From positions 32,001 to 96,000 of the forward strand of contig CAWAGQ010000011.1 in assembly GCA_963781585.1 (NCBI GenBank): a DNA stretch of 64,000 bases, given 5' to 3'. Positions 4,185 to 37,753 of this stretch are shown in pieces. Below the pieces are notes generated by a model that worked only from the letters and a program-made list of their open reading frames with translations, ran no database searches and was not told the DNA's origin. The first letter of the stretch is position 1; every line of letters starts with the position of its first letter. Source of the DNA: an uncultured Gemmatimonadaceae bacterium (GTDB lineage: Bacteria; Gemmatimonadota; Gemmatimonadetes; Gemmatimonadales; Gemmatimonadaceae). A program made the translations under genes and the position numbers.

Positions 4185-4446
4185 CTACGCGAGTCGCCGC
4201 TGGTGTCGTAATGCACCGAGGACGAACAGGAGTACGACCGCGCCGACGAACGCCACCAGGATGGTGCCCGGCAGTCCGTCGAGCGGTACCCGAATCCCCA
4301 GTGCGGCGAAGAGCCACCCGCCGAGAACGGCGCCGACCATGCCGACGACCATGTCGCCGAGCAGGCCGTAGCCGATACCCCCGACGACGGCGCTCGCGAG
4401 CAATCCGGCGACGAGACCAACCAAGAGCCACGTGATGAGAACCATG
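4185..4446 (-). CDS. GlsB/YeaQ/YmgE (transglycosylase-associated) membrane stress protein
   Basis: WLLVGLVAGLLAS..G.GLLGDMVVGMVGAVLGG..AFVGAVVLL, three Gly-rich TM helices. Start is approximate. Confidence 0.85.
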
Positions 4447-4516
4447 ACAACCCCCGCGAAGGACAACAGATGAAACCGACAGTACTGACGCTAACGTGCA
4501 GGTATTCGTCCCCGAC

Positions 4517-5215
4517 TCATTTCATCGACACCGTGAGGGGTCCAGTGAGCGTGATCACCACCGGTGTCCCCGAGCTCACCACCACATCACGGCTCGCGGT
4601 CTGGATTGCCACCGCCGCGCCACCCACCGCACCCACCGCGCCTCCGATGACCGTGCTCTTCGTATTCTTGCCGATCACCTGGCCAGCCGCCGCTCCGACC
4701 GCGGTGCCGACGCCCACCTTCACCGCTTCCGCGGTCCCGACGCCTCGTCCCTTCAGCGAATGCACGACCGAGGTGACGTCGCCAGCAAGCGTGTACACGT
4801 GGCCGCGGATCGTTGCCGAGGTCACGCTGAGCGCCAGCGTGCCATCCGCCTGATTCCGGTTGGTGGCCGGCGCGAGCTTCGCAATGAGCAGTTCGACTGT
4901 CGAGCCGGCAGGAATCACCACGCGGCCGTTGCTGTCCTTGACGTCCTCGCCAACGCTGATGGTCACTGCCTCCCCGGCCTTGTTGGAGCGCGAACTGATT
5001 GCCGAACCCCAGGTGGCGTCGATCCGGGAACCCGTTCCGAGTGTGCGTGTGGCGGGGCTCGTGCTCGGCGGCCGATCGTTGAGGCTGCCGCCGCCGCCGG
5101 CCGGCACGAGCGCGAGGTCGCGCGCAGCGCTGTCGCCTAACGCGACGTCCCGGTTTCCGCGCCCGCAGGCCGTCAATCCGGCCAGCGCGAGCGCTGCCAG
5201 CATGGTGCGTCTCAT
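4517..5215 (-). CDS. Lipoprotein with glycine zipper and TrbI-like beta region
   Basis: Lipobox LTAC after MRRTMLAALALAG, VVIPAGSTV, and GTAVGAAAGQVIG..GGAVGAVGGAA. Confidence 0.7.
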   Translation of the reverse strand: MRRTMLAALALAGLTACGRGNRDVALGDSAARDLALVPAGGGGSLNDRPPSTSPATRTLGTGSRIDATWGSAISSRSNKAGEAVTISVGEDVKDSNGRVVIPAGSTVELLIAKLAPATNRNQADGTLALSVTSATIRGHVYTLAGDVTSVVHSLKGRGVGTAEAVKVGVGTAVGAAAGQVIGKNTKSTVIGGAVGAVGGAAVAIQTASRDVVVSSGTPVVITLTGPLTVSMK

Positions 5216-5643
5216 GATGTGCTCCATTCGTTCGATGTCCGCCGGCGGAGCGGTGCCTCGCTCCGGCGCCACGACGAAACGTGAACCTGCATCTTCGGAT
5301 CGGTCGTCCTCATCCCGGACCAGCCAGCCGTCGCAGCGTCGTGAGGGGCTTGTGCTCGGGTAAAGAGCCTCGTCCAGAGGGCCGGCAACCAGGTGGGCTG
5401 GCTCCCCTCCGGCCATCAGGAGCCAATCTGAACGTTAGGCAACGTCGCAGGCAGGCACCATCGCTCGAACGAGTGAGCGAGGGACTACAGTCGGAACGAC
5501 TCCAAGGTCGCTCGACGACTGCAGCTTCGCGGCGCCGCGCGTCCGCACGCCTCCAGGCCAGTCTGCTGCGGCGCCCGCTGGACGACGTGAACGACATTCG
5601 GCTCTGTCCTCGGCGACGGAGCGGGGCGTCGCCGTCTGTGCAC

Positions 5644-6366: not shown

Positions 6367-7056
6367 CTACTCCCCGGTCTGCGCGCGTGCCTGGCGGTGA
6401 GTGCTCCGGCCCTCGGTCCGCGTAAAGGCGGCGACCTCGAGACGCGTATGCAGGGCAAGCTTCTCCAGCACGTTATGCACATGGCTCTTCACCGTGTGAA
6501 TCGCGATGTGCATCTGCGCGGCGATCTCCTTGTTGCTGCGCCCTTCGCTAATCAGATCAACCACTTGTCGCTCCCGCTGCGTCAATCGCACAGCCTCCAG
6601 CACCGGGCTCTTGCCGCCCGTCAAGGCGCGCTCGACGATCTGGCTGAACAACGAGCCGGTCAACTGGGTCGGGAGCACCCTCGTGCCGCTCGCCACCAGC
6701 CGGATGGTCTCCAGAAACTCGTCGAACGACGCGTCCTTCATGACGAAGCCCGCCGCGCCCGCCCGCACGAAGTCGGCGATGTCCTCGTGCAGGGGAAGCA
6801 GCCCCATGACGATGATTCTCGTCTCGGGCACCTCCCTGTGCAGTGTCGCGGTGAGGCGCAGGCTGTCATGAGTCTGCAACCCGAAGTCCACGAGGACCAC
6901 CCGGGGCCTGGCTTCCCGGATCTGTTTGAGCGCTTCGATTATGTTGGCTGACGCCGAGAGGACCTTGAAGCCCTGCTGCTCCCTGATCAGGTTGGCCAGA
7001 CCCTCACGCAGCATCCGATTGTCCTCGATGAGTACGAGGGAGATGGGATCGCTCAT
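6367..7056 (-). CDS. NarL/LuxR family response regulator (orphan in window)
   Basis: REC domain (IEDN, VVLVD, GFVMK) plus LuxR HTH (LTQRERQV..G.SNKEIA..TVKSHVHNVLEKL). Confidence 0.93.
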   Translation of the reverse strand: MSDPISLVLIEDNRMLREGLANLIREQQGFKVLSASANIIEALKQIREARPRVVLVDFGLQTHDSLRLTATLHREVPETRIIVMGLLPLHEDIADFVRAGAAGFVMKDASFDEFLETIRLVASGTRVLPTQLTGSLFSQIVERALTGGKSPVLEAVRLTQRERQVVDLISEGRSNKEIAAQMHIAIHTVKSHVHNVLEKLALHTRLEVAAFTRTEGRSTHRQARAQTGE

Positions 7057-7546
7057 GGCGTGAATCGTCGGGGTAGCGGACGCCGCCGCGGCGCGGCAGA
7101 CGAACGCGAACGGCCGTCCCATCGGTCATCGACGATGTGACGGCAATCGGGCCGCGGTGCGCGATGGCGATCTGCTGCGCGATAGGGCATCCCGCTCGTT
7201 CGTTCCAGGAGATCAACAATCTAGGGGTTCATGAGTGGCCGCGTGAGGGGCCCGCCCGACCCGGGAATCCGGTGGTTGCCCGTTGCGCGACAGTGAGCGC
7301 CCTGGCCGTGGTGAAGTCGACGAGCGCCTAACGCCCTGGTCACGCGAATCCGCGCTCTACCGAGGGAGCGGCGTACAGGCCCCGGCCTGCGACGCTGCCG
7401 TTGCCGAAGCGGAGTGCCGAGGGTGCCTGCCGCCTCGATGATCCCCGGTCAGAAGGTCGCGTGTGGAGGGGAGGCGATGGGTCGCCCCGCTCCAAGGATT
7501 GATAGCGCCGGCGCCGCGCGAGTCGTAGCCTTTCTGCAGAAGCGCG

Positions 7547-28241: not shown

Positions 28242-28253
28242 GCGTGCGTCCGG

Positions 28254-28949
28254 TCAATCTTCCTTCCATGGATTGGTGGCGAACACGGCGAGTTCCGGCC
28301 AGAGTGCCCGCCGGGGCATCTCGAGGGCCGCCATGATCGTCGCGGCGATATCGTCCGCGAACAGCTTGTTCGGATTGTTCCGGCCGGTGCGGCCGCCGAA
28401 CTCGGTCTGGACCTCGGACGGACAGACGCACACGACGCGAATGCTGTGCGGGCGCAGCTCTGCCTGCCAGCACTGACTGATCCCGCGCACCGCCCACTTG
28501 CTGCCACCGTACGCGGTCGCGCCGGGACCGCCCTTCATGCCGGACGTGGACGCGATGTTGATGATGTCGCCCTCCCCCTGCGCCTTCATCATCGGTACGA
28601 CGCGGTTGGTGATGTCGGTGAGGCCGAAGACATTGACGGCGAACATCGCGCGCATCGCGTCGAGGTCGAGCGCCCCGATCTCCCCGCGGTACGCGTACGC
28701 GGCGTTGTTCACGAGCACGTCGACGCCGCCCATGCGTTCGCGGCACGTGTCCACCGTTCGCGCGTTGTCCTCGCCGCTCGCGACGTCGGCCGTGAGGCCG
28801 TGTGCACCGGTCGCGGCCGCGACGCGCCCGATGCGCTGTACGTCGCGTCCGGTGAACACCACCTGGTGTCCGGCCGCGCGTGCGCGTTGAACCACGGCCG
28901 CGCCGATGCCCTGGCTGCCGCCGGTGACGAGAAAGCGACGGGTCTGCAT
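28254..28949 (-). CDS. SDR family oxidoreductase
   Basis: TGGSQGIG, LVNNA, NIASTSG, YGGSK (YxxxK). Confidence 0.93.
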   Translation of the reverse strand: MQTRRFLVTGGSQGIGAAVVQRARAAGHQVVFTGRDVQRIGRVAAATGAHGLTADVASGEDNARTVDTCRERMGGVDVLVNNAAYAYRGEIGALDLDAMRAMFAVNVFGLTDITNRVVPMMKAQGEGDIINIASTSGMKGGPGATAYGGSKWAVRGISQCWQAELRPHSIRVVCVCPSEVQTEFGGRTGRNNPNKLFADDIAATIMAALEMPRRALWPELAVFATNPWKED

Positions 28950-29083
28950 GATCGAAGGGGTTGTGGTGTCGGTCGCGAGGAGGCGAGCGTGGAGACATAC
29001 CTTACTCCGCACGCCGCGCGGACGCGAGCGCGCGCATCCTGACGACCTCTGGACGCACGACTGACGGCGATTCACTCTCTCTC

Positions 29084-30788
29084 ATGCCCACGCGCCGCGA
29101 ATTCGTCGCACAGGCCGCGCTGTCGGCCGTCGGGTTGACGCTGCCGGCGCCCCTCGTGATGCAGCCGGTGGTCCGGCACACCAGGGTCGCGTCGCCGCCT
29201 GGCAGCTTTCTCAATCTGATCCGTTCCCCCGACGCGGTCATGGTACAGACCGGGACCGACTACCTGCCGCTGGCACGCGAAGGCGATGGCCAGTGGTCGA
29301 AGAGCGGGATCGGCGTGACGACGACCGGGCAAAGTGGCGCACTCCAGGTCGTGCTGCGCGCGCCTCACGAGTCGATCAAGCGACTGCATCTGCGGTGGCG
29401 CGGGGCGCTGGACGGGGTGCGTCTTCTGCTCGGCGACGCCTGGGAGCGAGGCTACGGTGATCTCGAATGGCGGGGCTGGGTGCCCGACCGTGTGATGCCG
29501 TGGTACGTGGCGACGTACGATGGATCGCTCACGCATGGGTACGGGGTTCGCACCGGCGCGCGGGCGTTGTGCTACTGGCAGGTCGACCAGCAGGGGATCA
29601 GCCTCTGGACGGACGTGCGGAGCGGCGGCGTCGGCGTCGATCTCGGCGAGCGCGGGCTCGCGGTCTGCGACGTGGTCTGCCGTGCGGGGCGCGAAGGAGA
29701 ATCCGCGTTCGCCGCCGTTCACGCATTCTGCGCTCAGATGTGCGCCAGTCCCCGGCTGCCGGCGCACCCTGTCTATGGAAGCAATGACTGGTACTGGGCC
29801 TACGGGAAGAACAGCGCCGAGTCGGTCATGACCGATGCGCGCCTTATCGTGGAACTGTCGCCGGCGGGCGAGAACCGGCCGTTCGTCGTGATCGACGATG
29901 GCTGGCAACCGGTACGCGGCGCGGACAAGGCGGATCAGGGACGGTGGGATCGCGGCAACGAGAAGTTCCCGGACATGCCCGGGCTGGCTGCCGGGATTCG
30001 TCGTGCCGGCGCGCGCCCCGGCATCTGGATCCGTCCGCTTCAGGCGGCCTCCGACGCGCCCGATTCGTGGCGTCTGCCGCGTGACCGTGGGGTCCTCGAT
30101 CCCACCGTGGCCGGGGTGCGGCAGAAGGTCGCCGATGACATCGCACGGCTCCGGGAGTGGGGGTTCGAGCTGATCAAGCACGACTACACGACGTTCGACA
30201 TCTTCGGCCGGTGGGGTTTTCAGATGGGCGCGGCGCTCACGCGCGACGGGTGGAGGGTTCGCGTCAGGCAGCGATCGCACCACCGCCGAGGTGATCGACG
30301 AGCTGTACGGCTCCATTCGCGGGTCGGCGGGGGAGAGTCTGGTCATCGGCTGCAACACGGTGAGTCATCTCTCGGCGGGGCATTTCGAGATCTGCCGCGT
30401 GGGCGACGACACCAGCGGCACCGATTGGGCGCGGACGCGCAAGATGGGGGTCAACTCGCTTGCGTTCCGCGGACCGCAGCACGGCGCCTTCTACGTGGCC
30501 GATGCCGACTGCGTGGGCGTCACCAGTGCACTGCCGTGGTCGCTCAATCGGCAGTGGCTCGATCTGCTGGCGCGGAGCGGGACCATGCTGTTCGTGTCGC
30601 TCGCTCCCGATGCGTTAGGCACGGAGCAGCGGCGTGACCTGAAGGACGCGCTGGCGCTGGCGGCGATGCCGCACCCGCTCGGCGAGCCGCTCGGCTGGCT
30701 GGGGTCGGTGTACCCGTCGCGGTGGCGGGTGGTGGGCGGCGAGCGGAGGTACGACTGGGTGGGGGCGGATGGGGCGGGGCCGCCGTGA
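29084..30788 (+). CDS. Tat-exported clan GH-D (GH36-like alpha-galactosidase) glycoside hydrolase, frameshift near 30260
   Basis: TRREFV signal, GSNDWY, IDDGW, IKHDY (nucleophile). The second part (30291-30788) has IGCN and RVGDD. Confidence 0.75.
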
Positions 30789-31077
30789 GCGAGTGGATAT
30801 GTCCGTCCACGCACTGACGCCGGCGCAAGCCCCTCATCGGCTCTGGAGAACCGGCTAGCAGTTGCCGCGGTTCCTGGCTGGCGATGCGATGAGACTGCGT
30901 GCCGGCACGGTTGAGGTGAGTTTCCTGCGCTGCTGTGGCGGCGCGCCGCCGAATTTGATGCGTTGGAGTAGAGGCCCGCGCGTGATATGTTGGAGCGGGC
31001 AAACTCTGTACGCCGTGCCCGCAACTCGCCAGGGACAGGCGACATGACGTGCTCGTGACGCGCGAGACGTAGTTACC

Positions 31078-31091
31078 ATCGTTTCAACGAT
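31078..31091. promoter_or_regulatory. Palindrome ATCGTT-TC-AACGAT, possible operator
   Basis: Perfect 6-2-6 inverted repeat about 45 bp upstream of the DUF5131 start. Confidence 0.35.
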
Positions 31092-31135
31092 TCTCGCTCT
31101 CCGGCGTACGCACGTCCGATCCCACAGTAACTCCC

Positions 31136-31915
31136 ATGGGCCAGCAGTCACGCATCGAGTGGACCAACGCAACGTGGAATCCCGTCACTGGGTGCACGCA
31201 GGTAAGCGCCGGATGCGACCACTGCTACGCCTTGTCGCTCGCACATCGGCGGCTCCGCAGCCTCTACCTTCGACGTAGACCGGTCCACGCTTCGCCCGAA
31301 GCAATTGAGGACCCGTTCGCGGTGCGCCTGTGGCCGGAACGAACTGATGAACCCACGCACTGGCGAACACCGCGAATGGTCTTCGTCAACTCCATGAGCG
31401 ACTTCTTCCACGTCGACATCCCTGAGGGATTTACCCGACGCCTCTTCGAGGTGATGCTGCTCGCCGACCAGCACATCTATCAGATCCTGACCAAGCGACC
31501 CGCGCGCGCCGCACGGTTCTTCCGTCGTAACTCTGACCTGTTCGGTCGCGGTGTGGTGCCGGACCACATCTGGATCGGCACGTCTGTCGAGCTGCAGAGT
31601 GTCTCCCACCGTGTCGAGCAGCTGCGTCTGGTTCCGTGCGAGATTCGCTTCCTCTCCTGTGAGCCGCTTCTCGGTCCGCTCAGTCTCGATCTGAGCGACA
31701 TTCACTGGGTGATCGCGGGGGGCGAAAGCGGCCGAGATTATCGGCGTCTGGAGCTCGACTGGGCGAGATCGATTCGGGATCAGTGCCTCCGTGGGAAGGT
31801 TCCGTTCTTCTTCAAGCAGGTAGGGGGATACACCCCTAAGGCGGGAGGCCGACACTTTGACGGTGTCCAGTGGAACCAGTTTCCGGCCATCGCCCGCCGC
31901 ATGTGGCTCGCGTGA
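31136..31915 (+). CDS. DUF5131 / phage Gp37-Gp68 family protein (three-Cys, radical-SAM-like)
   Basis: IEWT.ATWNPVTGCTQVSAGCDHCYA, FVNSMSD.FH, QILTKRP, SCEPLLG, WVIAGGESG, FFFKQ.GG. Confidence 0.93.
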   Translation: MGQQSRIEWTNATWNPVTGCTQVSAGCDHCYALSLAHRRLRSLYLRRRPVHASPEAIEDPFAVRLWPERTDEPTHWRTPRMVFVNSMSDFFHVDIPEGFTRRLFEVMLLADQHIYQILTKRPARAARFFRRNSDLFGRGVVPDHIWIGTSVELQSVSHRVEQLRLVPCEIRFLSCEPLLGPLSLDLSDIHWVIAGGESGRDYRRLELDWARSIRDQCLRGKVPFFFKQVGGYTPKAGGRHFDGVQWNQFPAIARRMWLA

Positions 31916-32778
31916 CGAAACCGCGAAGAGAATATCTCATCGAGGCTCCGGACGATGGGTTGCCGGTGCCCGAGGTGGGCCGCTGGGCCGAAGAGAAATA
32001 CCGAAGACTTGGCATGTATGCCGAAATCTTCTCGACCGGCATGAAGAACGTGTGGCCCACGCGAGTCTACATCGATCTGTTCGCCGGCCGCGGACATGCG
32101 CTGATCACGGAAACGCATCGGCGTGTGTTGACATCCCCTTTGATCGCTTTGAGCCTACCCGACCGCTTCTCCCACTACATATTCTGCGAGAAGAAGCACT
32201 CGTTGCTTGAGGCACTCAAGAGCCGAGCAAGGGTGATGGCGAGCGAGGCGACGGTGGTATGCATCGAGGGGGATGCGAACGAGCGTATTCGCGAGATTGC
32301 AGCGATCATCCCGCAGCATACTGCCGCCAAGCGCGTCCTGGGCTTCTGCTTCATCGACCCGTTCAATCTCGGCATCCACTTCGATACGGTGCGTGCGCTC
32401 GGCAGGGGTCGACCTATGGACTTTCTCATTCTTCTCGCCTTCGGAATGGATGCCGGACGTAACTGGGCGACCTATCTCAAACCGGGAGACAAGAAAGTCG
32501 AGAGGTTTCTCGGAGCGCCTGACTGGAGGGAGCGATGGCGAACGACAGAGCGTGAAGGCATTGGTGAGACACGCTTTCTCGCCACAGAGTATGCGAGAGC
32601 GATGGAGAGCCTCGGCTACCGCACCACGTCAACCGAGCAAATGATCCCGGTGCGATCGACGGACAAGAATCTGCCGCTGTACTACCTGGCCTTCTTCAGC
32701 AGGAACGAGCAGGGGTACAAGTTCTGGCACGAGGTACAGAAGTACTCGGAAGACCAGCTGAACTTGTCTCTCGAATAG
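31912..32778 (+). CDS. tcmP: Three-Cys-motif partner protein (SAM-dependent methyltransferase-like fold)
   Basis: W...K, YIDLFAGRG, GDAN, FIDPF, LYYLAF.S. GTGA overlap with DUF5131. Confidence 0.85.
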   Translation: MTKPRREYLIEAPDDGLPVPEVGRWAEEKYRRLGMYAEIFSTGMKNVWPTRVYIDLFAGRGHALITETHRRVLTSPLIALSLPDRFSHYIFCEKKHSLLEALKSRARVMASEATVVCIEGDANERIREIAAIIPQHTAAKRVLGFCFIDPFNLGIHFDTVRALGRGRPMDFLILLAFGMDAGRNWATYLKPGDKKVERFLGAPDWRERWRTTEREGIGETRFLATEYARAMESLGYRTTSTEQMIPVRSTDKNLPLYYLAFFSRNEQGYKFWHEVQKYSEDQLNLSLE

Positions 32779-32949
32779 TGAGTGGCGGGCCCCTTGAAGC
32801 CGTGCTGCTCGGCGGAACCGAGACAGCTCGAGGAGGCAGCAATCACGGGTCAAACCCGTCTTGCAACCATCACTGTGTGCCGTGGTGACCAAGTGCAAGT
32901 CAGTCCAAGGGCATCGAGATGGGCTACAGGGAACTCGCGAGGAAGTGAC

Positions 32950-34074
32950 ATGAGGCGCCTCCATGTCGTTGCCGCAGCGCTGGCCGTCTCGGCATCGGCG
33001 GTACACGCCCAGCGATCCATCGATCTCACCGGCAAACCGGAGGCCGTGATCGCCGAACCCTTCACCATGGTCACCGGCGTGCGCGAACTGCCAGGCAATC
33101 TGGCGATCGTCACCGATCAGTTCGAACACCGGGTGTTCCTCGCGAACTTCGCCACGCGCTCCGCGGAGCAAATCGGCCGGCAGGGCGACGGGCCCGGTGA
33201 GTACCGCTTCCCCATGGCGCCTCTGCTTGCGCCGGGGAACGCAACGTGGATCCATGATGCAACGCTCCGGCGGATCGACGTCGTTTCGCCCGATGGCAGG
33301 TTCACCTCCGCTTTCAGTGCGCCGACCACCGGTATCCCCGGAGGCATTCGGGCCGCCCGCGGCACCGATCGCTCGGGCCACATCTATTTCGAGGGGAATA
33401 GTTTCGACCCGGAGACAGGGCGTTTCATCGACTCGGTCACCATCGCTCGTTGGAATCCGCAGGACAACCGGACGGACCTGCTCGGAAGGGTGTGGAGTGG
33501 CGGTCGCGTGATCGTCAACGGACCGAGTGGCAAGATGAGCATCGCGCGTGAGGCGACGCCGTTTCCGACTCTGGATGCCTGGGCCGTGCTCCCCGATGGG
33601 CGCATCGCGGTCATCGAGCACGCCCCATTCCGGATTGGATTGCTCGCACCAGGCGGCGTGATCCAGCGCGGCCCGGCGATTTCGTACGTCACCCTTCCCG
33701 TCACCCGGGCCGAGCGCGACGCATATCGCGCACGGCATGCCGCCGTGCGCTTGTCGGCGGCGATGAAGAACGGAGGCGGCGGCGCGGCAATGCGAGCCAC
33801 GCCAGTGAGCGACGCCGAGTTTCCCAATGTGATGCCGCGGTTCATCGCGAGCGCCGTCCTGACGACGCCCGAAGGCGAGATCTGGATCGGCCGGAGTCAC
33901 GCAGCGGCAGACCGCACGTGGCGCTACGACATCTTCGACGCCGGCAGCAAGCTGCTCGGCGCCGCGACACTTGGCGCGAATTCAGTGGTCGTTGGCTTCG
34001 GTGCCGGAACGGTGTACGTCGCACGCACCGACCCGGCCGATGACCTGGTCTACCTGGAGCGCTATCGGCGATAG
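32950..34074 (+). CDS. Exported six-bladed beta-propeller protein
   Basis: Signal peptide ending VHA-Q, IGRQGDGPGEYRFP, terminal D.DDLVYLERY. Confidence 0.75.
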   Translation: MRRLHVVAAALAVSASAVHAQRSIDLTGKPEAVIAEPFTMVTGVRELPGNLAIVTDQFEHRVFLANFATRSAEQIGRQGDGPGEYRFPMAPLLAPGNATWIHDATLRRIDVVSPDGRFTSAFSAPTTGIPGGIRAARGTDRSGHIYFEGNSFDPETGRFIDSVTIARWNPQDNRTDLLGRVWSGGRVIVNGPSGKMSIAREATPFPTLDAWAVLPDGRIAVIEHAPFRIGLLAPGGVIQRGPAISYVTLPVTRAERDAYRARHAAVRLSAAMKNGGGGAAMRATPVSDAEFPNVMPRFIASAVLTTPEGEIWIGRSHAAADRTWRYDIFDAGSKLLGAATLGANSVVVGFGAGTVYVARTDPADDLVYLERYRR

Positions 34075-34244
34075 TGGAGCAGGGAACGACCGTCCCGGTG
34101 CCTCCTCTTCTGCAAGCGCCGGCGACTCCGTCGTGCGAGCTAGACCGCGTACGTTCCAAGGAGCGATGGTAGCCCAAGGGCGCTTCGGCTAACGTCATTC
34201 ATGACAATTCGACCGAACCGAAGCTACGCCTCCCGGAGACGCCA

Positions 34245-34460
34245 ATGCGCATAGGCGTCATTGCAGGCATTGCGCTGCTCGTCGCCGGTGTCTTTGTGTT
34301 TTTTCGTGGCGGAAGCTTCACATCGCACCGTGACATGATGGACTTTGCCGGTATGCGTGTGTCCGTTGAGGAACAGCATCCTGTCCGTCCATGGGTTGCA
34401 GGCCTCGTCGCGCTTGCCGGAATCGCGCTTGTCGCGACGGCAGTGCGGCAAAAGGCGTAG
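34245..34460 (+). CDS. Small two-TM membrane protein
   Basis: Two hydrophobic helices, GGAG SD, followed by a terminator. Confidence 0.7.
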   Translation: MRIGVIAGIALLVAGVFVFFRGGSFTSHRDMMDFAGMRVSVEEQHPVRPWVAGLVALAGIALVATAVRQKA

Positions 34461-34478
34461 CCTTCGGCACGGCCTTTT
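34450..34478. terminator. Intrinsic terminator
   Basis: AAAAGGC-gtagccttcggcacg-GCCTTTT. Confidence 0.65.
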
Positions 34479-34609
34479 AGGCGATCTGCGCCGACTCACC
34501 CGGCATCCAGGTCAGCGCTTTCCAGGAAGTACCTGAAGCGGTGAGCATCTCGCGCAATCCCAATCGCGCCCGAAATCGAACGGCTGTGGCACTCTACCTG
34601 GGAGCACGA

Positions 34610-36082
34610 ATGATCGGGACAATCAGGTACCTCTTCTCCGGCGCCACGGTGGTGGTGGGGATGATGATGACGACCGGCTGTGCCACCAATCCGGTAACCG
34701 GCCGGAGGGAGCTGGCGCTGGTGTCGGAGTCACAGGAGATCGAGATGGGGCGTCAAGGCGCCGCTGATGTGGCGGCGACGATCGGCCTGTATCCGGATAT
34801 CGGCCTCCAGGCGTACGTGAATCGCGTCGGCCAGACGCTGGCGGCGAGGACCGAGCGTCCGAAGCTCCCGTGGGAATACCACGTGGTCGACGACGCCGCG
34901 GTGAATGCGTTTGCGCTGCCGGGAGGATTCATCTTTGTCACGCGCGGGCTGTTGACGCATATCACGAACGAGGCCGAGCTCGCATCGGTGCTGGGCCACG
35001 AAAGCGGACATGTGGCCGCACGGCACAGCGTGCAGCAGATCAGTCGCCAGGAGGTTGCGTCAATTGGCCTCGGGGTCGGGTCCGTGCTCTCTCCGGTCAT
35101 CGCGAAGTATGGTCAGGTGGCGAGCGCGGGGCTCGGACTGCTCTTTCTCAAGAACAGCCGGGACGACGAGACACAGGCCGATCAGCTCGGCTTTCGGTAT
35201 GCGCTCGCGGATGGCTATGACACGCGCCAGATGATCAACCTGTTCGAAATGCTCCAGCGCGACGAACAGCTGAGCGGCGGGGGTCGGCTCCCTGAATGGC
35301 AAGCCACACATCCGGATCCCGGGAACCGGATCAAGGATGTGCAAAGCCTGGTGGCCGCCTCGGCGCAGAACTTCAGCGCGAAGCAGATAGGTGGCGACGC
35401 GTTCCTGCAGCGCCTCGACGGCATGGTGTACGGTGAGGATCCCCGGGCGGGGTACTTCCAGGGCTCGCTCTTCCTGCACCCCGCGCTCGAGTTCCTCCTT
35501 CAGTTTCCTGACGGATGGACGACGCAGAACGCGCCCGACGCCGTGGCCGGCATGAGCAAGGCGCAGGACGCCCTTATCGAGCTGCGCGCCGCGCCAGGAA
35601 GCGCCGCAGACGCATCGACGAATTTCTTCGGTCAGCAGGGCCTGCAGTCTGGCAACACGACGCAAGGCACGATCCACGGCAATCGCTCGGTCAGCGGAGA
35701 GTTCACCGCGCAGAGCGACCAGGGGGCCTCCGTCCACGGCATCGCCACCTTCATCGAATATGGCGGGCGTACCTGGCAGATTCTGGCGTATTCGCCCGCC
35801 GACCGGTTCGCCGCCTACAGCGGAATCTTCCAGCAGTCGATCAACAGCTTTGATCGCCTCACGGATCCTGTCGCGCTGGCGGTGCAGCCGCTGCATGTTC
35901 GCCTCGAGAAGGCGCCGCGCGCGATGTCGCTCCTGCAGTTCAACGCGCAGCTGCCGTCGAGCATTTCACTTGCCGAGCTGGCACTGATCAATGGCATGGA
36001 TGAGAGTACGCCGCTCCGTGCCGGGCAGTTGGTGAAACGCGTGATCGGCACGCCGGTCGGACATATCCGCAGCACGCCCTAG
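34610..36082 (+). CDS. M48 family metalloprotease lipoprotein with C-terminal LysM-like region
   Basis: GC-ATNPVTG lipoprotein start, NAFALPGG, HESGH, THP, C-terminal LALING....LRAGQLVK. Confidence 0.9.
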   Translation: MIGTIRYLFSGATVVVGMMMTTGCATNPVTGRRELALVSESQEIEMGRQGAADVAATIGLYPDIGLQAYVNRVGQTLAARTERPKLPWEYHVVDDAAVNAFALPGGFIFVTRGLLTHITNEAELASVLGHESGHVAARHSVQQISRQEVASIGLGVGSVLSPVIAKYGQVASAGLGLLFLKNSRDDETQADQLGFRYALADGYDTRQMINLFEMLQRDEQLSGGGRLPEWQATHPDPGNRIKDVQSLVAASAQNFSAKQIGGDAFLQRLDGMVYGEDPRAGYFQGSLFLHPALEFLLQFPDGWTTQNAPDAVAGMSKAQDALIELRAAPGSAADASTNFFGQQGLQSGNTTQGTIHGNRSVSGEFTAQSDQGASVHGIATFIEYGGRTWQILAYSPADRFAAYSGIFQQSINSFDRLTDPVALAVQPLHVRLEKAPRAMSLLQFNAQLPSSISLAELALINGMDESTPLRAGQLVKRVIGTPVGHIRSTP

Positions 36083-36094
36083 AGGGGCGTGCTG
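36070..36094. terminator. Hairpin between convergent genes
   Basis: cAGCACGCCC-tagag-GGGCGTGCTg. Confidence 0.6.
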
Positions 36095-36129
36095 GGGGTA
36101 GGTGTAACCCGCGCGGAAGGAGAGACGGG

Positions 36130-36726
36130 CTACGGGACCACGACGGTCGTGCGCATCCACGGGTGAATGCAGCACTGGAAGTAGAGCGTACCGTGCTGCG
36201 TCACGATCTCCGTGTCGGTGCCGCCAGGCGGGAGGTACTCGCTTTGCGGTGCCGCGAGGCACTCGGGTGCAGGAGTTGGTGTGTTGTCGAGCTGGTTCAG
36301 TAGCGGCACAACCCCTCCACCAAAGGCCGCCACCTCCGTGAACGTGTGGACCTCACCGCCGCGGTTGATGGCGACAATCGAGCCGCCGAAGGGCAGTGTG
36401 AAGTTCTGAGGGGCGTTACGCCACGCCGGCGCCTTTTGGTGTTTCAGGAGCTGGTTGACGAAGGCGTCGAACTTGAGCCCGGGATGCGCTGACAAGCACG
36501 TTCCCGGTCCCACGGCAGCGTTGAAACTGAAAGGATCGCATTTATCGAGGAGCTGCACCGAATGTGACACGACAGCTGGCGCGTTTGCTGAGCCGGGCGA
36601 GGCAGGCGAGGCGTTGGCGGCGACGAGCGGATCCGCCGAGTCGGGCGCCGTGACGCGTGCGGAATCGGTGCAGCCCCAGAGGAGGAATGGACCAGCGGCC
36701 AGCAGGGTGGCGAGCGTGTGACGCAT
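36130..36726 (-). CDS. Cupredoxin-like lipoprotein (type-1 copper site)
   Basis: LLWGC lipobox-like sequence, EVHTF and C-terminal YFQCCIHPWM (His..Cys-x2-His-x2-Met). GGGAGG SD. Confidence 0.72.
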   Translation of the reverse strand: MRHTLATLLAAGPFLLWGCTDSARVTAPDSADPLVAANASPASPGSANAPAVVSHSVQLLDKCDPFSFNAAVGPGTCLSAHPGLKFDAFVNQLLKHQKAPAWRNAPQNFTLPFGGSIVAINRGGEVHTFTEVAAFGGGVVPLLNQLDNTPTPAPECLAAPQSEYLPPGGTDTEIVTQHGTLYFQCCIHPWMRTTVVVP

Positions 36727-36922
36727 GGGGCCTCCCGCGCGATGCGCCGTGCGCTTTGAGCGCCAATTCATCGCGCTGGTGTCGAAGGTGAAGGACGAGT
36801 TCGGGACATCGACTGCTGGTTCACCCTCGCTGGGCGCGCGCCTGGGGTCGCGGTCGAACGAGACAGAGAGAAGATAGGGCTGGTGATGAGAGACAGAAGG
36901 GGTGCCCACCCCGGTGGCAGGC

Positions 36923-37753
36923 TCAGGCGCGACCCCGGTCATACAGATGAGTGAAATCACGGCAGGCCGCGGCGACGACCGCCAGTGGATCGGCGCTCTC
37001 GGGGTGACGCATCTCAACCGACACCCAACCATTATAGCCGCTCGCGTGCAGTGCCGCGGCCAGGCCCGCGTGATCGGTACCGCCCCGGCCGAACGGAGCG
37101 AGAAAAGGTTCGCTGGCATGGACGTGCCCGAGCCAGTCCGCGCAGGTCCGTACCGCGGCAGCCGGAGATTCGCCGTTGAGCGCCAATGCGCCGCCGTCGA
37201 TCTGCACCCCGAGGCCGCGGCGACCCACGGCCGACACGAGCTTCACGGCATCACCGGTCGTCAGCACGAAGTCGCAGCCGTACTGCGCAGGATTGGGTTC
37301 CAGGCACAACGTCACGCCGTGCGACTCCGCGAGCGCCGCGGCGCGCGCGAAGAAGTCCCGCGCTTCCTCCTGAGCTTGCGCCTCGGACAGCCTTCCACGC
37401 AGGCGGTTCTTCGGTGATCCGAACACCAGCGCCGAGGCGCCCAGTCGCGCACCCAGGACACACATGCCCTCGAGGTGCGCGAGCGTGGCCGACTGCACCG
37501 GCGCGGGACCGAATACGGTGAGCTCGGGATGTCCGTAGAGGAGCGCCTGCATCGCCACCACCTGCAACCCGTCGTCGCTCCACTGCCGGCGATAGGCATC
37601 GACCTCCGACGATGGGACGGCGAGCGGTTCCTTCCACACCGCGGTCGGAGCGATCTCGACGCCACCGATGCCGGCTGCGCGCAGAATGCGCGCAGCCTCG
37701 CGGTCCGCGGGGGCGCCCCCCCACGCGATGTTGGAGAAAGCCAGCCGCTTCAT
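36923..37753 (-). CDS. Sugar phosphate isomerase/epimerase (AP-endonuclease-2 TIM barrel)
   Basis: LAFSNIAW, VEIAP, VFGSPKNR, CLEPN, HVHASEP, VSVEM. Confidence 0.88.
   Translation of the reverse strand: MKRLAFSNIAWGGAPADREAARILRAAGIGGVEIAPTAVWKEPLAVPSSEVDAYRRQWSDDGLQVVAMQALLYGHPELTVFGPAPVQSATLAHLEGMCVLGARLGASALVFGSPKNRLRGRLSEAQAQEEARDFFARAAALAESHGVTLCLEPNPAQYGCDFVLTTGDAVKLVSAVGRRGLGVQIDGGALALNGESPAAAVRTCADWLGHVHASEPFLAPFGRGGTDHAGLAAALHASGYNGWVSVEMRHPESADPLAVVAAACRDFTHLYDRGRA

Follow-up and report, generated by a model that had tools for sequence, protein, structure and literature searches.

A DUF5131-TcmP gene pair in a Gemmatimonadaceae genome: a mobile phage-defence candidate with predicted radical SAM and methyltransferase folds

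The two genes considered here lie next to each other on the forward strand of a 64-kb stretch of DNA (the window; 64,000 nucleotides of contig CAWAGQ010000011.1 from an uncultured Gemmatimonadaceae bacterium) and encode a DUF5131 protein and its TcmP partner. Both are intact and full-length with respect to their profiles, their predicted folds are those of a radical S-adenosylmethionine (SAM) enzyme and a SAM-dependent methyltransferase, and they recur side by side in many other genomes. The first gene (31136-31915, + strand) specifies a protein of 259 amino acids (aa), also known as phage Gp37-Gp68, whose closest named homologues are found in Gemmatimonadota. The second open reading frame (ORF) extends on the same strand from a GTG at 31870 to 32778 (302 aa). 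Bases 31912-31915 read GTGA, such that a further in-frame GTG of the TcmP gene overlaps the TGA stop of the DUF5131 gene; this coupling had been noted in the original prediction, which was made from the letters of the sequence. Homologues of TcmP typically have 280-290 aa, and the best of them pairs its own residues 8-288 with residues 5-285 of the query. Because these lengths and this alignment fit, the 288-aa protein starting at GTG 31912 (31912-32778, +) is the likely product, with GTG 31870 as the alternative start.

The window proteins match the PADLOC models of candidate PDC-M41 in adjacent genes and in operon order. The pair is already known as the phage-defence candidate PDC-M41/PDC-M30 and is less novel than the original prediction implied. 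PDC systems are predictions made by 'guilt-by-embedding' in BREX, DISARM or type I restriction-modification (R-M) loci (Payne et al., bioRxiv 10.1101/2024.01.29.577857). In the literature, DUF5131, TcmP, Gp37Gp68 and PDC-M30 were found only as annotation or listing mentions and no functional study was found, in agreement with the earlier statement that the chemistry of the pair is uncharacterised.

Families, conserved residues and predicted folds

The DUF5131 protein matches PF07505 with an E value of 6.8e-86 and 288.2 bits against a cut-off of 28.9, its residues 4-250 covering the profile from end to end (1-243 of 243). It also matches phrog_2045 and the PADLOC models PDC-M41B (E 9.4e-84) and PDC-M30B. 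PF07505 is the only Pfam match at E <= 0.01; the Pfam Radical_SAM family (PF04055) is not matched, and the resemblance to TIGR04471 (radical SAM mobile pair protein A) is weak, 43 bits being far under the cut-off of 355. In SFLD/RadicalSAM.org, DUF5131 constitutes subgroup Megacluster-5-2 with the motif CX6CX2C, and spore photoproduct lyase (SPL) constitutes Megacluster-5-3 of the same megacluster (PMC9477430). The window protein contains the motif as CTQVSAGCDHC, and its three cysteines, C20, C27 and C30 (codons at 31193-31225, +), form the predicted [4Fe-4S] site. All three are invariant in 50 of 50 aligned homologues, which bears out the Cx6Cx2C triad originally described, and together with C217 they are conserved at 95% or more among 66 sequences.

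A structural model of the DUF5131 protein, with a mean predicted local distance difference test (pLDDT) score of 84.9, was compared with 48,161 chains using VIA. The first match is SPL (4fhc_A; Z 12.6, root-mean-square deviation 2.8 Å, 196 residues), followed by lysine 2,3-aminomutase (Z 10.8), viperin (10.6) and SuiB (10.3), and nearly all chains at Z >= 8 are radical SAM enzymes. Since residues 1-228 of the model align to residues 71-341 of SPL, in which the cluster motif begins at residue 90, C20 is placed near the cluster motif of SPL. On the strength of this model, DUF5131 is predicted to be an enzyme of the radical SAM superfamily with a fold closest to that of SPL. A search of the Protein Data Bank (PDB) with the DUF5131 sequence returned no chain at E <= 1.

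TcmP matches TIGR04474 (E 2.4e-34; 119.5 bits against a cut-off of 53), with residues 39-291 of the 302-aa form corresponding to positions 2-260 of the 263 in the profile, so that both family assignments of the original prediction stand above their curated cut-offs. It also matches PADLOC PDC-M41A (E 1.1e-21) and has neither a Pfam nor a PHROG match. The family comprises 2451 representative clusters at E <= 0.001. Conservation among 66 diverged TcmP partners reveals a small invariant core. In the SAM-binding motif I (YIDLFAGRG; codons at 32068-32094, +), G59 is present in all 66, D55 in 64 (Glu in the other two) and G61 in 58. K29, in the N-terminal tail (31996-31998, +), is Lys in 66 of 66, and position 93 (motif II) is acidic, either Glu or Asp, throughout. 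The element resembling motif IV, D149-P150-F151 (32356-32364, +), has a single Pro where the canonical sequence is (D/N)PP(Y/F/W); its Asp is kept in 66 of 66 partners and its Pro in 55. Trm1 has a DPF(G) motif. IDLFAGRG, earlier called a SAM-binding-type motif, is supported by the residues retained; for DPF, earlier described as reminiscent of amino-methyltransferase motif IV, the invariant Asp speaks for that reading, while the second Pro of the canonical motif is missing. A C5-cytosine methyltransferase reading, based on DLFAG and a Cys near motif IV, was ruled out, as C146 is found in only 7 of the 66 partners.

The AlphaFold2 model of TcmP, calculated from a 75-sequence alignment, has a pLDDT of 96. 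Foldseek matched it to 314 PDB chains at E <= 0.001, with RlmJ first (E 2.7e-6, TM score ~0.5) and Trm1 next, and among the matches listed all are methyltransferases or enzymes of the same fold, such as spermidine synthase. VIA returned Trm1 (3axs; Z 14.9 over 221 residues), RlmJ (7p9o; Z 14.8 over 213 residues) and the RlmJ homologue 2oo3 (Z 14.3). The model and these top matches uphold the methyltransferase fold anticipated for the second protein. RlmJ and Trm1 are exocyclic-N methyltransferases that modify 23S rRNA (m6A2030) and tRNA (m2,2G26), respectively. RlmJ is an N6-methyladenine (m6A) methyltransferase in which residues Y4, H6 and K18 of motif X and D164 of motif IV (164-DPPY-167) are needed for activity, the D164A mutant being inactive (PMC3814359). 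By analogy, K29 of TcmP is probably the counterpart of K18, the catalytic Lys in motif X of RlmJ, and the invariant K29 and D149 fit the K18/D164 pattern of RlmJ. We propose that TcmP is a catalytically competent class I SAM-dependent enzyme of the exocyclic-amine methyltransferase type, as its modelled fold and its conserved motifs suggest.

At the level of sequence, the relationship to these enzymes is distant. When 75 TcmP members were compared with Pfam at E <= 1, RlmJ appeared in three and an RsmD-like family in two, none significantly; a sequence search of the PDB with the TcmP profile gave three chance-level matches only, and a BFVD search with the TcmP model gave generic methyltransferases only. 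RlmJ itself (PF04378) was not found among 31 genomes (the source genome and 30 relatives) by a search that was positive in 4 of 14 well-known genomes used as a control.

Linkage, mobility and genomic contexts

With the DUF5131 alignment as anchor, 79 cellular loci were gathered. An adjacent partner was recognised in 52 of them with a TcmP profile of the window subfamily and in 69 after one profile iteration; of the ten without a partner, three (L037, L039 and L077) have less than 800 bp of downstream DNA. Among 80 DUF5131 loci from IMG/VR, 38 have an adjacent TcmP-like partner. The TcmP gene either shares the strand of the DUF5131 gene, lying downstream or upstream of it, or is convergent with it, and in two loci both domains are fused in a single ORF (L042, 634 aa; L054, 534 aa). 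All-against-all clustering of 822 ORFs showed no conserved third gene: the largest other family is present in 5 of the 79 loci, and its listed members, located on the opposite strand within or beside DUF5131 genes, are read as antisense ORFs. The absence of an adjacent restriction nuclease, as originally pointed out, is consistent with these data, given that no nuclease domain is present in the islet that holds the window pair and no third gene is conserved in the 79 loci. Because TcmP is adjacent in 69 of 79 loci, in all orientations and twice as a fusion, and no third gene accompanies the two, we infer that the proteins act jointly; the fusions suggest that they also bind each other.

Sequence conservation of the two partners was compared for 66 pairs (the window and 65 loci with both domains of at least 220 residues; 2145 comparisons). 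DUF5131 proteins share a median identity of 54% and TcmP proteins one of 21%, and DUF5131 is the more conserved protein in 99.8% of comparisons, a contrast that is inflated by the choice of loci according to DUF5131 similarity. Long forms of TcmP (370-616 aa) contain extra domains without a Pfam match. The pair is found on plasmids, prophages and chromosomes over many phyla, archaea included. Two of the loci without TcmP have distinctive neighbours. In L076, from a Coleofasciculus metagenome-assembled genome, the DUF5131 gene overlaps at its end with a gene for a TIR-domain protein (6644-7162; PF13676, E 2.2e-26; ThsB-like in PADLOC), which occupies the usual place of TcmP. The other, L056, adjoins a gene for an Lhr helicase.

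In the source genome, the pair resides in a variable islet that is apparent from comparison with a second contig of the same assembly. This assembly consists of 5.7 Mb in 17 contigs (estimated 93.5% complete and 7.2% contaminated), with the window on contig C11. An 82-kb sister contig, C17, aligns by megablast to C11:584-81196 at 80-97% identity with 75% covered, in collinear order; it either stems from a close relative that was binned together with the source genome or represents a large duplication. Homology, at 95% identity over window positions 28253-30787, ends at 30787 and restarts at 32966 (85% identity over 32966-34069), and the pair lies between these points. The islet (30789-32949, +; 2161 bp, GC 0.605) spans from the stop of a melibiase-like gene to the start of a gene for a secreted protein and contains the two genes only. 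At the corresponding site, C17 carries a winged-helix gene and a 235-aa gene (L017:6847-8074) that match the PADLOC candidates PDC-M21A (E 7.9e-38) and PDC-M21B (E 1.9e-28). Because this other cassette sits at exactly the same site, the pair constitutes a swappable islet of alternative candidate cassettes.

The base composition agrees with an origin elsewhere. The GC spot counts first reported (31/60 at 32161-32220 and 48/60 at 30721-30780) are exact, and in a sliding-window analysis of the whole assembly (11,382 windows of 1643 bp) the 1643-bp pair has a GC content of 0.599 against a mean of 0.670 and a standard deviation of 0.024 (z -2.95); only 0.77% of windows reach this value or lower, with the caveat that moderately low values (0.61-0.66) persist downstream of the pair until ~36500. 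TcmP is present in 5 of 40 relatives searched and was not found in the sole genome of the same genus (64% complete). Low GC, this patchy occurrence and the different cassette at the collinear site of C17 together support horizontal acquisition, as had been suggested. No flanking direct or inverted repeats were found at the islet ends, no tRNA in the 64-kb window, and no integrase or other phage gene near the pair.

The cassette begins with a 347-bp non-coding leader (30789-31135, +) and ends with a 171-bp spacer behind TcmP (32779-32949, +), both delimited by the sister-contig comparison. No sigma-70-like promoter was detected near the pair, the leader included, and Rfam gave no match there except a sub-threshold one inside the upstream gene. 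In a shallow test, the leader showed neither a Cheo-type box (GAAC-N4-GTTC, with up to one mismatch) nor any word common to the leaders of the genome's own lexA and recA genes. A look-up of sequencing runs returned none for the islet. The leader contains a perfect 14-bp palindrome, ATCGTT-TC-AACGAT (31078-31091), which ends 45 bp before the DUF5131 start, is the sole ATCGTT-N2-AACGAT in the 5.7-Mb assembly and is possibly the operator of some regulator.

Two further islets distinguish C11 from C17. One, in C17 only, encodes a LuxR-type regulator and a DUF4199 membrane protein (L017 2925-4229); at the other (34070-36952), the window encodes a small membrane protein, an M48 peptidase and a protein of 329 aa, and in C17 a sulfatase gene takes their place. 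The melibiase-like (alpha-galactosidase-like) gene upstream of the pair (28961-30788) is split into frames 28961-30637 and 30291-30788 by one extra A (~30254) relative to C17, where it forms a single ORF of 614 aa; the split reflects either a pseudogene or an assembly error. Elsewhere in the genome, a second DUF5131 gene (252 aa; G000 contig C8:4800-6300, L004:1009-2507; PDC-M41B, E 7.3e-91) overlaps by four bases a TcmP-like ORF of which only the first ~64-80 residues match TcmP. Within the remaining part of this frame, the other strand encodes the N-terminus of an IS21-family transposase (NF033546, E 1.9e-17), and the second TcmP gene looks disrupted by an insertion sequence.

The occurrence of DUF5131 in phages, stated in the original prediction, extends to 169 of 50,697 phage records, mainly of Mycobacterium and Gordonia phages. 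In Gordonia phage Jablanski, gp42 (DUF5131) is convergent with gp43, annotated as a methyltransferase and recognised as TcmP by the iterated profile (E 4.3e-60); the integrase lies to one side of the two genes and the immunity repressor to the other, and a RelBE pair is close by. Gordonia phage BaxterFox (NC_031226.1) has the same convergent arrangement of DUF5131 and gp42 (TcmP, E 2.5e-61), again between integrase and repressor. Its DUF5131 frame (L099, locus 4222-5247, +; E 6.2e-107) is unannotated, and the hypothetical genes gp40 and gp41 are annotated antisense over it. In phage replication modules, longer solo DUF5131 genes occur: that of Bakery lies directly downstream of a DNA methyltransferase gene, and that of Squirty is separated by ~1 kb from a gene recorded as a DNA methylase. 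Searches by tblastn with the window TcmP found no phage record, and those with two phage TcmP-like proteins found their own close kin only; the family has diverged too far for pairing in GenBank phages to be counted by BLAST.

On plasmids, DUF5131 is present in 235 records, and a PGAP-annotated TcmP adjoins it in three of three inspected. On S. meliloti pSymA (L184, NC_003037.1:1254083-1259879), a long TcmP-like gene (PDC-M30A) comes after the DUF5131 gene and is convergent with a short TcmP gene (PDC-M41A) located directly downstream of the gene for an 844-aa helicase (PDC-S28, E 0). One radical enzyme thus has two different TcmP-type neighbours at this locus. SMa2245 (Hna, a phage defense system) and SMa2243 (TcmP) have been grouped in putative transcriptional units (PMC12445080), and from the order of the locus tags the PDC-S28 helicase is probably Hna.

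Nearest neighbours of the pair were surveyed by scanning 120 of 138 ORFs at 67 loci. By our own classification, made without a control set, 16 of the 57 neighbours with a Pfam match belong to R-M, toxin-antitoxin or other defence-type classes, and five are mobile-element genes. The defence-type neighbours comprise HsdS (twice), HsdR, MmeI, an Eco57I-like protein, an N6/N4 methylase, GmrSD-HNH and Uma2, together with AbiEii, RelE, HipA, RES, an AAA_15/21 ATPase, a ResIII helicase, TCAD9 and a SLOG domain.

A proposed joint base-modifying module and its alternatives

The observations above suggest that the pair is a nucleic-acid base-modifying module, probably acting on DNA and used in phage-host conflict, a reading to which we would give an even chance of being right. 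In this model, DUF5131 and TcmP (PDC-M41) form a self-contained, horizontally mobile two-gene module. The Cx6Cx2C triad of DUF5131 would hold a [4Fe-4S] cluster and cleave SAM to yield a 5'-deoxyadenosyl radical, and both proteins would act, probably as a complex, on one substrate, a nucleic-acid base and most likely one in DNA. TcmP may flip out and N-methylate (or simply hold) the amino group of a purine or cytosine, upon which the radical enzyme could transform the base handled by TcmP or its neighbour. The module would serve in conflict with phages or mobile elements, either in defence or in self-marking, as opposed to a housekeeping role. SPL and the SPL-like protein gp53 of phage M6 are described as radical SAM enzymes that act on DNA (PMC8989533). 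DNA is favoured as the probable substrate because of this precedent and because of the phage replication-module context. In the other direction, RNA is favoured because the nearest folds of TcmP are RNA methyltransferases. The active site of RlmJ resembles those of DNA m6A methyltransferases (PMC3814359), and because of this resemblance the likeness in fold does not decide between RNA and DNA.

Several observations weigh against this model. The Cys loop of the DUF5131 model is predicted with only moderate confidence (pLDDT 65-82 for residues 11-40), and Foldseek returned nothing for this model at E <= 0.001. The top Z scores of TcmP (14.5-14.9) are just ~1.5 above those of generic methyltransferases (~13), and its closest solved relatives act on RNA, not DNA. 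Its DPF differs from the canonical motif IV, and Pfam RlmJ (PF04378) has no match to the window TcmP and matches 3 of 75 family members with a best E value of 0.056. TcmP is missing beside DUF5131 in 42 of the 80 viral loci and in 7 cellular loci whose flanks are complete, so that the radical enzyme can work without this partner, and longer solo forms reside in phage replication modules. The selection of loci by DUF5131 similarity inflates the conservation contrast, and the neighbour tally (16 of 57 defence-type) is uncontrolled. The window pair itself adjoins no defence gene, its neighbours being genes for metabolic or secreted proteins. Lastly, the literature search found no experimental datum for any family member, and PDC systems are predicted only.

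A bolder version of this model is that the pair is a radical SAM analogue of R-M or of DNA hypermodification, the first in cellular genomes, in which a rapidly evolving, RlmJ-like TcmP would select and mark a purine in DNA and the SPL-like enzyme would either turn the mark into a new hypermodified base or attack unmarked DNA; we consider this version unlikely. A strict R-M-like division into opposed roles, with TcmP self-marking the DNA of its own cell at specific sites and the radical SAM enzyme damaging unmarked phage DNA in place of a nuclease, is doubtful. It would suit the variability of the methyltransferase-like partner beside a conserved effector (21% and 54% median identity), the lack of a conserved nuclease nearby, the lysogeny-region and defence-island settings, and the definition of the PDC candidates by embedding in BREX, DISARM or type I R-M. 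It would also suit the existence of single-chain fusions. DUF5131-TcmP fusions resemble type IIG enzymes. However, we know of no radical SAM enzyme that serves as a restriction effector, the divergence of TcmP extends along the entire protein and is not confined to a separable target-recognition domain, and a solo DUF5131 in lytic phages would be toxic to its own carrier. Repair or tolerance of DNA damage, with an SPL-like enzyme reversing a base lesion or cross-link and TcmP as a lesion-recognising, base-flipping partner, seems improbable as well. SPL, the closest solved fold, is a DNA-repair enzyme in the same RadicalSAM.org megacluster, and one of the TcmP-less loci adjoins the Lhr repair helicase, but the window leader has no Cheo-type box and shares no words with the lexA and recA leaders (in a test that, as noted, is shallow). 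Moreover, repair leaves unexplained the rapid divergence of TcmP, its invariant methyltransferase catalytic residues and the patchy distribution on plasmids and prophages.

That all top structural relatives of TcmP are RNA methyltransferases, with TYW2, Trm5 and TYW1 lower in the structural match lists, raises the alternative of an RNA-modifying pair, in which TcmP methylates a purine in tRNA or rRNA and the radical enzyme elaborates the same nucleotide, for instance to confer resistance to a toxin or antibiotic that targets the ribosome or tRNA. Methyltransferase and radical SAM enzymes cooperate in wybutosine synthesis, and the nearest named protein-atlas clusters are RlmJ-like (score 0.84, a lead only). 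We nevertheless think this alternative quite improbable: the nearest fold of the radical partner acts on DNA, solo DUF5131 genes of phages have DNA methylase and replication genes around them, the pair is mobile and patchily distributed, and the active site of RlmJ is itself like those of the DNA enzymes (PMC3814359). A viperin-like synthesis of an antiviral nucleotide, whereby a free nucleotide is converted to a methylated or dehydrated chain terminator, is very improbable. Viperin is the third-best structural match of DUF5131 (Z 10.6), RlmJ-type pockets can hold a mononucleotide such as AMP (PMC3814359) and the pair occurs in defence-type contexts; yet SPL stands ~2 Z units above viperin, enzymes for a single small substrate are usually conserved while TcmP partners are ~21% identical, and no nucleotide kinase or similar gene is linked. 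The notion that the pair is a functionless prophage remnant, or a purely selfish addiction cassette without an enzymatic role for its host, is hardly credible. The family is named after phage proteins and appears in the 169 phage records, and the second TcmP gene of the genome is broken off with an IS21-like transposase gene in the rest of its frame, but both genes of the window are intact and match their profiles at full length, their catalytic residues are conserved, no other phage gene or tRNA is nearby, and the islet holds nothing beyond the two genes.

Relation to known systems

The window pair is an ordinary member of its family, and its special value is the natural cassette swap relative to the sister contig. 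New in this work are this swap at C17, the invariant core of TcmP formed by Lys, Asp and motif I, the fusions, and the contexts in lysogeny modules and next to Hna. An account of thymidine hypermodification describes just two radical SAM enzymes that act on DNA (PMC8989533). Should the pair act on DNA, a large new class of such enzymes would be gained, possibly along with a new modification of DNA or a new mechanism of defence; were the radical SAM analogue of R-M or hypermodification true, it would represent a new chemical principle for discrimination between self and non-self. The invariant residues C20, C27 and C30 of DUF5131 and K29, D55, G59 and D149 of TcmP are targets for mutagenesis, and tractable hosts with the pair are Gordonia terrae lysogens of BaxterFox and S. 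meliloti with pSymA.

With PDC-M41 (DUF5131 and a short TcmP), the window pair and the plasmid, phage and chromosomal copies have the same gene content, and we see no structural difference; the window copy lies outside any known defence system. PDC-M30 consists of DUF5131 and a long TcmP-like protein. With respect to the PF07505 and TIGR04474 families, the window proteins exceed both curated cut-offs and the partner is adjacent, as the name TcmP implies; that name states the partnership alone, and no activity is attached to it.

With SPL (SplB, 4fhc) and M6 gp53, a DNA-hypermodification isomerase, both of which act on DNA, the predicted DUF5131 model has in common the partial-barrel fold of radical SAM enzymes. 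The resemblance is confined to the fold: the motif is CX3CX2C in SPL and Cx6Cx2C in DUF5131, the latter protein is ~80 residues shorter, and SPL has no methyltransferase-fold partner whereas DUF5131 has one. TcmP shares the class I methyltransferase fold with RlmJ and Trm1 over 213-221 residues (Z 14.8-14.9). K18 and D164 of RlmJ are alike to the invariant N-terminal Lys and motif-IV Asp of TcmP, and both proteins have a helical insertion, located after strand 5 (residues 177-233) in TcmP and at residues 47-98 in RlmJ (PMC3814359). Motif IV is D-P-F/Y in TcmP and DPPY in RlmJ. RlmJ is encoded by a solitary housekeeping gene, in contrast to TcmP, which is mobile, occurs patchily and always accompanies a radical SAM gene. 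Type II and IIG R-M systems resemble the pair in being two-gene or fused mobile cassettes with a methyltransferase-type enzyme, often beside defence genes. The pair differs from them in that it is devoid of a nuclease domain and its second enzyme is of the radical SAM type.

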